The position numbers are program-made. Positions 12,001 to 18,000 of a DNA stretch of 35,130 nt are shown in pieces. The stretch lies in the IMG/VR virus record IMGVR_UViG_2740892229_000022; one strand, given 5' to 3'. The first letter of the stretch is position 1; every line of letters starts with the position of its first letter. The stretch comes from a virus. Taxonomy: Duplodnaviria; Heunggongvirae; Uroviricota; Caudoviricetes.

Positions 12001-15000
12001 GATTGAACAGATCAATATCGCCCTTGAACATAAAGGTTCCGGTAACTTTTCAGCGTGGGTTATTGAAGCCTGCAGGAGAAGGCTGGCAACAGATGCAACG
12101 CATCTGCGTCCGGCCAGCATGACAAATAACGAGAAATGAACGTTCGGTTACAGGAGCGGGTACCCACTGTCCTCCAACAATATTTCATCTTCATACCCGG
12201 CGGAACAAGACTTACCCAGCCGGAATGTACAGAATAACAACAGAGTGATAATTAATTTCTGATGAAATAATCAGGGTGCAGAAGGACTAAAGATAAACGT
12301 TTTCTTCACGCCTTTACGCGGCCTGTCCTTCTCAAATCGCCATTTTGCCATCGCCTTTACAACCTGCTCATCAAACAGATGGTGCGGCTCTGAACGGATA
12401 AACTCAATTCGGGTGACAGTACCATCAGCACCAATATCAAACTTCACATCAACCCGTCCCTTTATATAATTTGCCGCTGCATAGGCCGGATATTGTGGTA
12501 ATGCCTTAACCAACTGTCGGGGCATATCTGTTTTATGTTGCGTACAGCCCATAACCAGAGAAGACAACAAAATAATTAACGGAAGATTTCTTTTCATTTT
12601 CATTCCCGGCACAGATAAGAATAAGTCTTATTCTAACAATGCCACCCTGTCGGCCATCAATCCTCTGCTTAATGGCAACGACAATTATCCGACTTAAATC
12701 ACAAATCAGACACATGACATAACAGGTCTTGCGAGGTAACACATCGTCCGGTTTCTTCCACCATCGCACCGAACCAGCGACCATGAGGGGACAACGCCGC
12801 GCTCCGTTAACGCGGTAAACCCCGGTGTGTATNNNNNNNNNNTTCCTGCCAGTTCTGAATGGTACGGATACTCGCACCGAAAATGTCAGCCAGCTGCTTT
12901 TTGTTGACTTCCATTGTTCATTCCACGGCCAAAAACAGAGAAAGGAAACGACAGAGGCCCAAAAGCTCGTTTTCAGCACCTGTCGTTTCCTTTCTTTTTA
13001 GAGGGTATTTTAAATAAAAACATTAAGTTATGACGAAGAAGAACGGAAACGCCTTAAACNNNNNNNNNNAAGGCCAAAAAGCCCGTTTTCAGCACCTGTC
13101 GTTTCCTTTCTTTTCAGGGGGTATTTTAAATAAAAACATTAAGTTACGACGAAGAAGAACGGAAACACCTTAAACCGGAAAATTTTCATAAATAGCGAAA
13201 ACCCGCGAGGTCGCCGCCCCGTAACCTGTCGGATCACCGGAAAGGACCCGTAAAGTGATAATGATTATCATCTACATATCACAACGTGCGTGGAGGCCAT
13301 CAAACCACGTCAAATAATCAATTATGACGCAGGTATCGTATTAATTGATCTGCATNNNNNNNNNNTTTTCAGCACCTGTCGTTTCCTTTCTTTTCAGGGG
13401 GTGTTTTAAATAAAAACATTAGGTTACGGCGAAGAAGAACGGAAACGCCTTAAACCGGAAAATTTTCATAAATAGCGAAAACCCGCGAGGTCGCCGCCCC
13501 GTAACCTGTCGGATCGCCGGAAAGGACCCGCGAAAATGATAATGGTTATCAGTTGCAGCAAATCCAGTTTCTTCCACCATCGCACCGGACCAGCGACCAT
13601 GAGGGGACAACGCCGCGCTCCGTTTACGCGGTAAACCCCGGTGTGTATCGTTTTTGATTATCCCCGCACACTCGCGCAGAGTAGTCTCCCTGTCGGGCTG
13701 CGGTCTCTGTTAATGAGGGAATACAGCGACGATACGGCGCATCAGCAAAACTTAGTTCAGGCACTGAGTGCGGATATAGTCCTGTGCCCCTTCCAGCTGC
13801 TTCTGCATTGTCATCAACCGTTCTCTGAGGATGAAATAATCCCGTGTAACGGTGTCTGCCAGTTGGGGGCCGGTTGCATTATCCACGCGGGCGGTGCCGG
13901 TGGCTTCACGCACGGGACCTGGACAGGTGGCGTTGATCCGCAGGCTGCGGTGACCAGCGGCAACGTCAGCGCGAAGAGTTTCATTTTCAGCTCTCGCATC
14001 GGCTAATTCCCTCGAGTATCTGGCATCAAGTGCAGCAACATCACGCTGGCGCTGCTGCATATCAGTAATGGTTGCATTTGCCAGCTCCAGCTCACTGACT
14101 TTTTTATCGCGCTGCTCTTTGTAGGTTATGGCGTTATCACGGTAATGATTCAGCCCCAGACTAAGCGCACCACAGGCCACCAGCAGGGCAATGATGACCA
14201 CGCACAGTACGCGGTTCATTTCACCACCAGCGTATCTGACCGATGAAATAACCGGAGGCCATAATCACAAACACCCGCCAGATAAGAATGAACTTCCAGG
14301 TAGATAATTTTTCAGCCATCACTCGAATCTCCCGAATCAGTTTGCTAAAATCAAACACACTTTCTCCTTTGACTTTTCCAGAGTCAGGAAACACAAAACC
14401 CCGCTTGCAGCCAACAAACGGGGTTTTTACTTTTATTCACTTAGTTTTTGTCAGTTCGCAGGATTTCGTGTTATCCGTCCGTGTGAGCAAACCTCATTTT
14501 TCAGCAAAATATTCTTCTTATCTGTCGATTCCCCAGCACGCCAGCGCGCTCTCCTGGTCACGACGGGATACCTGACCGTAACAGTTGTTTGAACGGATAC
14601 GGCAGTCTCTGCCACCGTCCTTAATCNNNNNNNNNNTCATGAAACAATCTTGTTGACTTTATTCACTTACATTTTGCCAGTTCGCAGGATTTCGTGTTGT
14701 CTACCCGCGTTGGCCAACGTCATTTTTCAGCAAAATATTCTGCTTACCTGTCGATACCCCAGCATGCCAGCGCACTCTCCTGGTCACGTCTTGATACCTG
14801 ACCGTAACAGTTGTTTGAACGGATACGGCAGTCTCTGCCACCGTCCTTAATCCACCAGCGAATCGCCTCACACGCTCCCCTGCGATCGCCTGCATTAAGC
14901 CGCTTATAAAACGTCGACGGGAAACACTTACCGGGGCCAATGTTATAGGGGCAAAATGACGCGATACCTGCTTTTTGTGGCTCGGTCAGTGGAACTTTTA

Positions 15001-18000
15001 TATTACGCTCCACCCATGCCAGCGCCTTATCCCGTTCGATAGCGTTAACCCGGTCGCATTTTTCCTTCGACAGCTTCATGCCAGGAATCACAGGCTTACC
15101 ATCCACCATGATGGCGCCTCGGCAGATGGTCCAGATACCCGCACCATCACGGTATGCCGTGGTGTGGTTGCCTTCCTTTTCATCCAGAAACTGGTCGAGG
15201 ATTTCAGGCGCAGAAGCACCTGCGGCAATCAGCGCCAGAACGGCAGCCGATAAACCATAGCGGAGTTTCCTGCTCATCAGCTTACTCTCCCCGTGCCGCC
15301 TTACGCCTGTCCTCTCTGATTTTGAAATACAGGTTCGTCAGGTACGTCAGCAGACCAAACAGCAGACTCCCCAGCACGCCTATTGCCGCCCACTGAGACG
15401 GGGAAACCCTGTCCAGCAACTGCAGGAACCAGTAGCCCGTTCCCACCGCTGACGTGGTGTATGACACACCTGTTGTGATTTTTTCCATCTGGTTCATACC
15501 CCGCCTCCCGCAATCCGGAAGCTCACAACAATAAAAAAGACCACCGGCACACACCGATGGTCCCTGACGCATGCTTACATCATCATGTCGCTGTCCGGTG
15601 TGGGGTCACCGCTATCTGAAGCACTCCCCTCACCCGCGATGCCTTCCGGCTCCGGAGCTGCCGGTGCGCCCAGCAGTTCATCCAGAATGGCATCCACTTC
15701 TGCATCAAGACGCGCTTCCAGGTTATGGCGAAGTTTCTGTTTCAGTGCGCTCCGGACTTCTTCAGAGCGCAGGACTTCCTTCACTGCTTCAGCAGTGACC
15801 AGGGATGTAATTTCTGACATGGGATTTTCTCGTCGAAAGGTGTGATTAAGAAAGTTGCCGCTAAATGAGCGGCTCTTCGGGTTTGCTTCCGGCTGACTGA
15901 CTGGCGCTGATTTTCTCAGCGGCCCTTTTGTCAATCTGTCTGCGCCAGAAGTCACGCATGGCCCTGTACCCACCCGAAAGGAGATACAGCACACAGACCA
16001 CCGTACAGAAGTACAGCATCAGCTGATGAATAAATGTCATAATTTCTTACCGTTATGGTTGACTAAGTAAACAGTTTTCATTTAAAAATGCCGATGACGA
16101 AAGTGGTAGTATCTTTCCTTGATTCTCCATGAATCTCACACCGCCAGAGGTCTCAGGCAACTGGCGGCTTTTTTTATCATGCCGCGGCATCCGCGTTGTT
16201 CACTTCCACCACAATGCTGTCAATCAGCACCGGGTAAGTCGCATTCCTGGTAATGTCTGTCACATGCAGTTTATCCGCCGCAAATGCACTGACCGGTGAC
16301 TGCGTCAGCGTGAACGGTGTGCCATCCTGACCATCAATAACCGGCGTCACCTGAAGGCTGTTATTCCCGGCAAAGCGGAAAGCCAGCGTATGCCATTCGT
16401 TATCAAATGCGCCAAAGGTTCCCAGTTTCAGGTTGTTTGTCGCCACTTTCGCATTGTGGTACATCACATTCAGGTCTTTTGCATCTGTCTGGATGTAGAA
16501 CGCTGCCAGCAGGTTATTCCCCCCGTCTCCGGTCAGGGCAACGCCCTGTGGCAGTGAAGAGACCGGCCAGTAAAACGCCATAACATACTGGTTCGCAGCC
16601 AGCGCTCCCGAAACCTTAAAGCGGCAGCGAATCTGCCCCCCTTTCTGTAACAGAGCCGCACCGTTGCCCGCGGCGTACTCCAGCACCCAGCTGCTTTTAC
16701 CGGCCTCCTTGGTCAGCTTCACTGCCTTACCTCCGGTTCCCTCCGCATCGCTGACCACTTCTGCCCTGCCGCCACTGGCTGACCATCCCTGTACTTTCAG
16801 GCTTCCCTCTGACTCGCTGGCAAGGTAAGAGAGCAGTGTTGTGACGCCTGTGGCTTCTGCACCGGAAGGCGATGAAGGGCGCACCTCTGATACTGTCGAT
16901 GATGCCCCCGCGTTTAGCGCCACTCTTCCCGCATGGCGCAAAATCGCCGTTGCCAGACGGTCGGAAATAATCCCACGGCGTGCCCAGGCGCTGAAATGGC
17001 TCGCCCTGTCCTGTGACGTCCAGGTGGCTGAGCTGTCACGCCATTTCGAACCGTAATATCCGATACCCGGAATGTCCGGGTCTTCTTCCGGTTTGTTCGT
17101 CGGCACATTCACCCCGTTCTCATCGGTCATGAACGGTACGAAATGGATATTCTTTTCCGTTTTGTTTTTATAGCTGCCGTACACCGTCTGGTACGTGGAT
17201 TCGTTCTTCTGCTTCCAGAAATACGTCGTATCTCCACATATCCAGGGAACACCGCCAGCAGAGCCACCGACGCACTGACCTGCCATATCCGCCAGGTCTG
17301 CACGGAATTTATCAACCAGCGCACCAAACTGTGCGGCATGATTTGCCGGCGTCCCGCCAAAATCAAATTCCCCCTGCATCCACACCACGGCAAACAGCAC
17401 ATTTTTCGGGTTCTTCTTCAGTGCTGCTTTTGTTCGACCGATAAGGTCCTTATACAGCGGCTTGTCCACANNNNNNNNNNTGCGTGATTTGCCGGCGTAC
17501 CGCCAAAATCAAATTCCCCCTGCATCCACACCACGGCAAACAGCACATTTTTCGGATTCTTCTTCAGTGCTGCTTTTGTTCGACCGATAAGGTCCTTATA
17601 CAGCGGCTTGTCCACACCCCAGCGGGTTGAATTCTCCGAGGCACCACTCGCGTCACTGTATGTGCCATCGGCTCCGGTGGTGAACGCTGAACCACCACGA
17701 CAGCACGGAACCAGCAGAATGCCCGCATTCGCCGGTATAAACGGCAGCAATTTTTTGGCGATATGCAGCCCTTGCCCCACGGTTCCGTACTGCCCCTTTG
17801 ACAGGTCCGCTTTCGGATGGTTAAGGCGGCTCATGTCCTGCACATCATGCAGACAATGGTCCGCCGGAATGATGTCGTTATATTTACAGGCGACACCGCC
17901 CGGTGTCACCGTACTGCGACGCGCCAGCTGCTTAATGCGCGGGTCCGGACGGTCATATGTCTCCGGCAGCGGAAGGCCTTCACCATATGCCATGCTGTTT

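Follow-up and report, generated by a model that had tools for sequence, protein, structure and literature searches.

The question raised by the locus at 14744-15497 of IMG/VR virus record IMGVR_UViG_2740892229_000022, a stretch of 35,130 nucleotides (nt) from a virus of the Caudoviricetes that is referred to here, at its full length, as the window, is which type of phage lysis system its two genes belong to. A preliminary description had read them as a lysis cassette of the phage 21 type, in which a pinholin with two start codons is followed by an endolysin with a signal-anchor-release (SAR) segment, and had taken the lambda-like spanins of the window for a sign of mosaicism. The coordinates proved to be exact, one end being the endolysin's stop codon and the other the holin's first ATG, with both genes on the minus strand, and a pair of the phage 21 type was indeed found, consisting of an S21-family holin and then a GH24 lysozyme with a signal-anchor-like segment. 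The two genes, named S and R, are very probably the holin and endolysin from the late (lysis) operon of a Shiga toxin (Stx)-type lambdoid prophage of Escherichia coli, essentially in the 933W/Qin version of the phage 21 system. The assignment draws on the families to which the two proteins belong, on their conserved motifs, on the order of the genes and on their identity with genes annotated in inducible Stx phages. Both open reading frames (ORFs) are intact, they are separated by a spacer of 4 nt, and they lie on one contig (14637-17470) together with the DUF826 and DUF1378 genes and the 3' part of nanS-p. The features of the locus are the following:

15282-15497, minus strand: holin gene S, long form of 71 amino acids (aa) from Met1; P21 holin S family, class II, predicted pinholin
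15282-15488, minus strand: short form of the holin, 68 aa from Met4 (in-frame ATG at 15486-15488), counterpart of the S21-68 pinholin
15504-15509, minus strand: Shine-Dalgarno (SD) sequence GGGAGG, 6 nt upstream of holin Met1, read from the sequence
15414-15479, minus strand: predicted first transmembrane domain (TMD1) of the holin, residues 7-28, from hydrophobicity, composition and the S21 alignment
15324-15392, minus strand: predicted second transmembrane domain (TMD2) of the holin, residues 36-58, from hydrophobicity and the S21 alignment, with a charged tail after it
14744-15277, minus strand: gene R, coding for a 177-aa GH24 muramidase of the 933W/Qin (RrrQ) type that is predicted to be a SAR endolysin
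15206-15259, minus strand: N-terminal charge-free segment of R, residues 7-24, YGLSAAVLALIAAGASAP, predicted SAR domain
15128-15175, minus strand: catalytic triad region of R, E35-8 residues-D44-5 residues-T50
15536-15565, minus strand: terminator-like hairpin (stem of 13 bp, then a run of T) in the interval from the DUF826 gene to S

S matches the Pfam family PF04971, 'Bacteriophage P21 holin S', with an E-value of 9e-33 and 112.5 bits (cut-off 26), covering positions 1-63 of the 64 in the model. The PHROGs database places S in holin families and R as an endolysin, and RefSeq labels identical genes 'class II holin family protein' and 'lysozyme'; among the NCBIfam models no holin or spanin model was matched, and for R there was only a sub-threshold match to a gene transfer agent endolysin model. 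The reference used for phage 21 was OL657228.1, from a phage collection, whose annotation lists the S21-71 antiholin, the S21-68 pinholin, a 'SAR endolysin' and the i- and o-spanins. Alignment with S21, on which the preliminary description had made its reading depend, was obtained without a gap, with 79% identity between S and S21-71 and an equal length of 71 aa. Residues M1, M4, G40, G43, S44 and G48 are invariant among the S of the window, S21 and EssD, and G40, S44 and G48 correspond to the small-residue face of TMD2 in S21. The charged C-terminal tail of S is identical to that of S21.

The transmembrane assignments for S and R were made from hydrophobicity scales and by comparison with S21 and R21; the Hessa-type and Kyte-Doolittle scales are indicative only, and so are comparisons with the control sequences (such as OmpA, DsbA and MalE). 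On these scales TMD1 is weakly hydrophobic, with a mean Kyte-Doolittle value of 0.71 and 50% of G/A/S/T residues (0.52 and 55% in S21), and TMD2 is more hydrophobic, with a mean of 1.48 (1.50 in S21). The two transmembrane segments that had been claimed for the holin are thus supported, with values nearly equal to those of S21. The putative dual start, Met1-x-x-Met4, was also recovered, as MNQMEK with the SD sequence upstream of Met1, and an M-x-x-M start is found in about 95 of 120 database homologues of the holin, with many differing x-x pairs, which together with the Pfam matches of S and R takes the observation well past anything that chance would produce. A search of the literature on a dual start of the 933W holin found nothing. 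Another in-frame ATG, at 15572, which would open a 96-aa ORF, was rejected as holin start, as it has no SD sequence and stands beside the terminator-like hairpin, and the plus-strand ORFs overlapping S and R were treated as spurious. The hairpin at 15536-15565 lies inside the late operon and would need Q-mediated readthrough; a comparable terminator-like hairpin of different sequence is present upstream of the S gene of 933W. A Rfam scan of the whole window at gathering thresholds gave nothing in or beside S and R.

The endolysin belongs to the same system at a greater distance from the prototype. R matches the Pfam family PF00959 (Phage_lysozyme) with an E-value of 3.4e-24, and the best match among sequences of the Protein Data Bank (PDB) is 7m5i (3.8e-21), with R21 (3hde) at 4e-16. 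In HMMER, residues 12-174 of R align with residues 8-163 of R21, the N-terminal segment included, and E35, D44 and T50 stand at identical positions in R21 and also in RrrD. These three residues are invariant or nearly so in 106 homologues (T50 in 104). The alignment with R21 that had been proposed as a check therefore holds over nearly the full length, but at 33-35% identity it does not speak for close orthology, and by its sequence R is placed in a distinct 177-aa 933W/Qin lineage that has a 7-residue insert, as a homologue of R21 rather than a close orthologue. The AlphaFold2 (AF2) model of R has a predicted local distance difference test (pLDDT) score of 82.7 overall and of about 95 at residues 11-30, and it shows helices at 11-18 and 23-35. 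When it was compared by Foldseek, GH24 endolysins were retrieved, with full-length R21 (3hde) over 171-173 columns at TM scores of 0.65-0.72. All eight cysteines of R, compared with four in R21, are invariant in the 106 homologues, which fits a periplasmic enzyme. The four cysteines that the 177-aa lineage has in addition to those of R21 are found in FCPYNIGPGKCF and RDCRIRSNNCYG, at residues 109-118 and 149-157, and the second of these cysteine loops is modelled with low confidence (pLDDT below 50 at residues 151-156). A literature search on RrrQ found nothing relevant.

The closest relatives of the pair are found in Stx phages and in E. coli that produce Shiga toxin (STEC). S is identical to the S of 933W, which starts MYQMEK, at 69 of 71 residues, and R to the R of 933W at 171 of 177, the first 55 residues being the same. 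Many complete STEC genomes (O26:H11 11368, O103 and others) contain the 964 nt around S-R at 100% identity, and the S-R DNA is 99.2% identical to that of Stx2 phages such as VT2phi_272 and PA2. The S-R region is present in 4397 of 5426 complete E. coli genomes, in up to 17 places per genome. The mitomycin-induced phage ASU11 carries S at 70/71 and R at 171/177 identity with the window. Pinto et al. (2021, PMC8136144) had already reported that 99% of Stx phages carry a pinholin and a predicted SAR endolysin, and the holins of Stx2a phages have been assigned to the P21 holin S family, the genes of Stx phages being classed as pinholin and SAR endolysin (PMC10462455).

Linkage of the two genes was surveyed in 80 viral contigs carrying this holin subtype, whose holins are 97-100% identical and thus of little diversity. 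An endolysin of the 933W type (at least 90% identical) lies downstream of the holin in 67 of them, directly adjacent in 11 and, in the remainder of the 67, at a distance of 200-1400 bp, where DUF1327 (YdfR-like) or further small genes intervene; an R21-type endolysin behind this holin subtype was never found in the 80 contigs. Holin subtype and endolysin lineage travel together. The inserts between S and R in these relatives (for example at 2718-3062 in contig L047 and 2718-3524 in contig L034) are either a DUF1327 (YdfR-like) gene of variable length, in ORFs of 86-328 aa, or an ORF of 161-213 aa that starts MNHEEMNQRF and has no Pfam match.

Comparison with known systems places the pair more closely. 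With 933W and Qin (essQ/rrrQ) it shares the annotation and the order nanS-p, small DUF genes, S, 4-nt spacer and R; it differs from 933W in N2 for Y2 and R61 for K61 in S, in six conservative changes in R, and in that S-R in the window does not share its contig with the downstream ant and Rz genes. The holin of phage 21 has the same Pfam family, length, M1/M4 pair, TMD1/TMD2 layout, G40/S44/G48 residues and tail as S, whereas it carries an MKS extension (Lys2) in place of MNQ, and the stop codon of its S overlaps the start of R, the two being 4 nt apart in the window. R21 and RrrD of DLP12 (PDB 3HDE, 3HDF and 4ZPU), the prototype of a SAR endolysin without a cysteine in this domain, share with R the GH24 fold and the triad positions, and R21 and R have in common a G/A/S-rich hydrophobic segment after basic residues, with no cysteine inside, and an S21-family holin as partner. 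They differ in length (177 aa in R and 165 in R21), in the charge-free segment (17-18 and 20 residues) and in the number of cysteines given above, and R has the insert RDCRIRSNNCYG and the loop FCPYNIGPGKCF.

The lysozyme Lyz of phage P1 has a cysteine within its SAR domain and is regulated by disulfide isomerisation. In R there is no cysteine in residues 1-51, the first being C52, so that this disulfide mechanism does not apply. Like R, P1 Lyz (PDB 1XJT; Foldseek E-value 9e-4) is a GH24 lysozyme with an N-terminal SAR-like segment. With lambda, finally, the cassette shares its place in the late operon, where S105/S107 and R are followed by spanins of the Rz/Rz1 type (64% identical). The lambda R protein is a transglycosylase without an export signal, and lambda S has three TMDs. 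Direct sequence comparison of the window proteins with lambda S and lambda R revealed no detectable similarity, and the difference from the lambda S/R type that had been claimed therefore stands.

The spanins themselves, and with them the claim of mosaicism, need the structure of the window to be taken into account. The window was scaffolded from nine contigs and has eight gaps, each of 10 N, at 8790, 11636, 12833, 13060, 13356, 14627, 17471 and 18253, and the one at 14627 comes between the contig of S-R and that of the spanins. The features concerned are:

14627-14636, no strand: scaffold gap of 10 N, parting the S-R contig from the Rz/Rz1 contig
14518-14626, minus strand: 3' end of a second endolysin copy, on the neighbouring contig, same protein, with DNA about 90% identical to 14744-14852
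13752-14219, minus strand: i-spanin gene Rz, 155 aa, lambda/21 type, on a contig other than that of S-R
13814-13999, minus strand: o-spanin gene Rz1, embedded in Rz

Rz matches PF03245 (E-value 3.4e-47) and Rz1 matches PF06085 (E-value 9.6e-21). Rz is 64% identical to the Rz of both lambda and phage 21, and Rz1, which is embedded in the +1 frame of Rz and has its lipoprotein cysteine C20 invariant, is 63-65% identical, so that the description of the spanins as lambda-like was correct. The conclusion of mosaicism drawn from it fails, since the Rz and Rz1 of phage 21 are themselves nearly identical to those of lambda, and lambda-type spanins after a pinholin and a SAR endolysin are thus the native arrangement of phage 21. 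The S-R contig extends from 14637 to 17470 and the Rz contig from 13366 to 14626, and the latter starts with the 3' end of the different endolysin copy listed above. Strain 2013C-4991 matches this Rz contig at 100% identity and has S, R, a 45-aa ORF and Rz in that order. The end of the S-R contig is matched, likewise at 100%, by O26 11368, in which R and Rz are separated by an antirepressor gene. In complete genomes with an identical S-R, Rz/Rz1 lie downstream, with or without ant between. The Rz/Rz1 of the window apparently come from a different prophage than S-R; the linkage of S with R, and of both with DUF826, DUF1378 and the nanS-p 3' part, is secure, while that with the spanins or the stx2 genes of the window is not provable.

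The reading of the N-terminal segment of R as a SAR domain has one rival that deserves close consideration, namely that the segment is a cleavable Sec signal peptide and that R would act as a soluble periplasmic lysozyme, like endolysins with genuine signal peptides, checked by other means dependent on the proton motive force instead of SAR tethering. The protein starts MSRKLR followed by YGLSAAVLALIAAGASAP, with the full start MSRKLRYGLSAAVLALIAAGASAPEILDQFLDEKEG; R3, K4 and R6 precede a stretch, Y7-A23, of 17 residues without charged residues, N/Q/H or Pro, which extends to 18 residues (Y7-P24) when only D/E/K/R are counted as breaks, and its G/A/S/T content is 65%, as in R21, with 55% in P1 Lyz. 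In composition and position the segment, charge-free, rich in G/A/S and placed after basic residues, thus agrees with the SAR segment that had been claimed, while its SAR behaviour is a prediction. Several points favour the signal peptide and weigh against the SAR domain. With 17-18 residues, the stretch falls short of the 20 in R21 and P1 Lyz by 2-3 and equals in length that of the signal peptides of OmpA, DsbA and MalE (16-18). A19-G20-A21|S22 fits the -3/-1 rule, so that sequence alone leaves room for a cleavable signal peptide; T4 RI, long credited with a SAR domain, proved to have such a peptide (PMC8385771). For 933W R as a SAR endolysin, the support that could be traced in a paper of the Young laboratory is its plasmid table, which lists 'pZE12-933W-R ... 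phage 933W SAR endolysin' and cites a thesis (Kuty, 2011; PMC9239132), and in the accessible literature the SAR status of the 177-aa lineage rests on prediction and on this thesis. The -3/-1 scan, which gives candidate sites in almost every homologue because the segment is rich in Ala, does not discriminate. The best 19-mer, by Hessa-type and Kyte-Doolittle sums, is marginal in R (+4.1, compared with +0.8 in R21, again on the indicative scales). Against cleavage, the segment aligns with the SAR region of R21, with L5, R6, A11, A12, A19, A21 and S22 identical, and in the 106 homologues it is conserved like the catalytic domain (L9, S10, L16, G20, A21, A23 and others), while residues 1-8 vary freely. 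The charge-free stretch keeps to 18-21 residues in 79 of the 81 different N-termini compared; as these sequences are related, the counts are not independent of one another. Nowhere among them does a basic residue at position 8 go together with an acidic one at position 25, a covariation that may reflect only a few lineages. Signal peptidase I is blocked by a Pro at +1. Of the 106 homologues, 31 have Pro at position 22 and 77 have it at position 24, and some variants, for example AVGAPAPD, are therefore left without a usable cleavage site. The pLDDT of about 95 at residues 11-30 suggests, in the model, that the segment is part of the folded enzyme, and the listing by the Young laboratory, as far as that table goes, points the same way. 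Taken together, the signal peptide is unlikely. Other export signals were also considered for R; a lipoprotein signal was rejected, as there is no lipobox cysteine, and a Tat signal, as there is no twin arginine.

For S and for the cassette as a whole the rivals have less in their favour. That S makes large holes as a canonical holin does, or works as a holin with no antiholin beside it, its Met1/Met4 pair being conserved without dual-start regulation, would be suggested by its long form, which has no extra positive charge. The extension is MNQ in the window, as opposed to MKS in S21 and EssD, and the homologues include 52 sequences with a basic residue in the start (MKSM, MYRM, MLRM, MKM, MHRM, MMKM, MKFM) and 44 without one (MYQM, MDQM, MNQM, MFQM, MHQM), to which the window belongs. 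S21-71 and lambda S107 are antiholins owing to an additional positively charged N-terminal residue (PMC9636201), and as that residue is missing from the MNQ form, the charge-based mechanism is not transferable to it as such. Moreover, the SD sequence sits in the 3' arm of a small hairpin (about 15503-15522, by RNA folding), and comparable SD-pairing hairpins fold in 933W, phage 21 and DLP12, but that of the window is no better than shuffled sequences (z = -0.98). Both the missing charge and the hairpin weigh against the complete phage 21 scheme for S: the start motif is present, but the known mechanism gives no support to the 71-aa form as an antiholin. The identity of 79% to S21, with the whole TMD2 and tail included, the retention of both Met codons across divergent x-x pairs, and a partner endolysin with its own export signal, for which a large hole is not needed, speak for a pinholin; according to a review of the published S21 work, S21-68 did not complement S105, the S allele of lambda, which is what pointed to the pinholin pathway (PMC9636201). 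A large-hole or unregulated holin is accordingly very improbable. Equally improbable is that S-R is a non-functional relic of a cryptic prophage or a chimera of the assembly and not a working lysis cassette. Such a view could draw on the nine-contig scaffold, on the flanking of the S-R contig by pieces from different prophages and on the up to 17 copies of the region per STEC genome, yet the two ORFs are intact on a single contig with their neighbours, their DNA recurs unchanged over 964 nt in many complete genomes and at 99.2% in sequenced Stx2 phages, and an induced phage, ASU11, carries both proteins in nearly identical form.

On the preferred reading of S-R as a pinholin and SAR endolysin, the course of lysis can be proposed by analogy with phage 21. 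Late transcription dependent on Q would be followed by translation of S from Met1 and/or Met4. S would insert with two TMDs, of which the weakly hydrophobic TMD1 would leave the bilayer, as in S21, and TMD2 would then oligomerise through its G40xxxS44xxxG48 face into small pinholes (about 2 nm), with collapse of the proton motive force at a set time. R, exported by Sec through its N-terminal signal anchor, would meanwhile accumulate tethered to the membrane and inactive; depolarisation would release it, so that it could refold to the active GH24 muramidase (E35/D44/T50) and degrade the murein. The Rz/Rz1 spanins would then disrupt the outer membrane, and phage, together with toxin in Stx phages, would be released. 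Pinhole formation, SAR tethering and release, and the antiholin role of the 71-aa form are all carried over from phage 21 in this scheme. As to the last of them, the 933W/Qin subgroup has extensions without positive charge (MNQ, MYQ, MFQ, MHQ) or with a negative one (MDQ) and keeps Met1-x-x-Met4 throughout; we tentatively consider, as a possibility that is on balance doubtful, that if both starts are used in this subgroup, the long form is not an antiholin or delays the exit of TMD1 independently of charge. If true, such a long form without added positive charge would not follow the established S21-71 and lambda S107 model.

For Stx phages, annotations and publications already cover these genes, the families to which they belong and their reading as a pinholin with a SAR endolysin, and in this respect nothing new is added here. 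The relevance of the cassette is medical, as it would time the lysis of the host and hence the release of phage and Shiga toxin from induced STEC.

The remaining observations concern the surroundings of the cassette. The parts of the window at 4007-8789 and 18263-29194 are 99.8-100% identical to the Stx2d phage ASU11 (E. coli O80:H2), in which only 3.6 kb (Rz, R, S, DUF826, DUF1378 and nanS-p) lie between the two. In the window, the interval from 8790 to 18262 holds 9.4 kb of short contigs, which are 92-98% identical to ASU11 and include a second terminase pair (8896-11117) as well as duplicated pieces of R, Rz and nanS-p. These are probably repeat contigs of other lambdoid prophages that were placed by reference-guided scaffolding. 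A gene for a NanS-p-type sialate O-acetylesterase (SASA, DUF6645) at 16177-18539, on the minus strand, is split over three contigs, and the DUF1737-like N-terminal motif KHYDVVRA occurs two times across the 18253 gap, which again points to copies that were collapsed or mixed. Directly upstream of Rz there is a small conserved ORF (14221-14394, minus strand; PHROG 6632), annotated as hypothetical in complete genomes, and ahead of it a strong terminator-like hairpin with a 14-bp stem (14395-14427, minus strand).

An intact Shiga toxin 2 operon occupies 18954-20194 on the minus strand, with stx2A at 19235-20194 (319 aa) and stx2B at 18954-19223 (89 aa), and is 99.9% identical to that of 'Stx2d-converting phage Stx2_112808' and of phage ASU11. 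Upstream of it are three tRNA genes (Arg, Arg and Met) at 20285-20536, and just downstream of stx2B a full-length Rfam match to the small RNA STnc100 was found (18665-18879, minus strand, 159 bits). Further matches in Rfam, to the C4 antisense RNA (85 bits) and to isrK (57.6 bits), lie at 27913-28101 on the minus strand and overlap the 5' part of a 220-aa ORF (27496-28158) that corresponds to a putative antirepressor in ASU11, and the region looks like an immunity module of the P1/P7-like c4-ant type.

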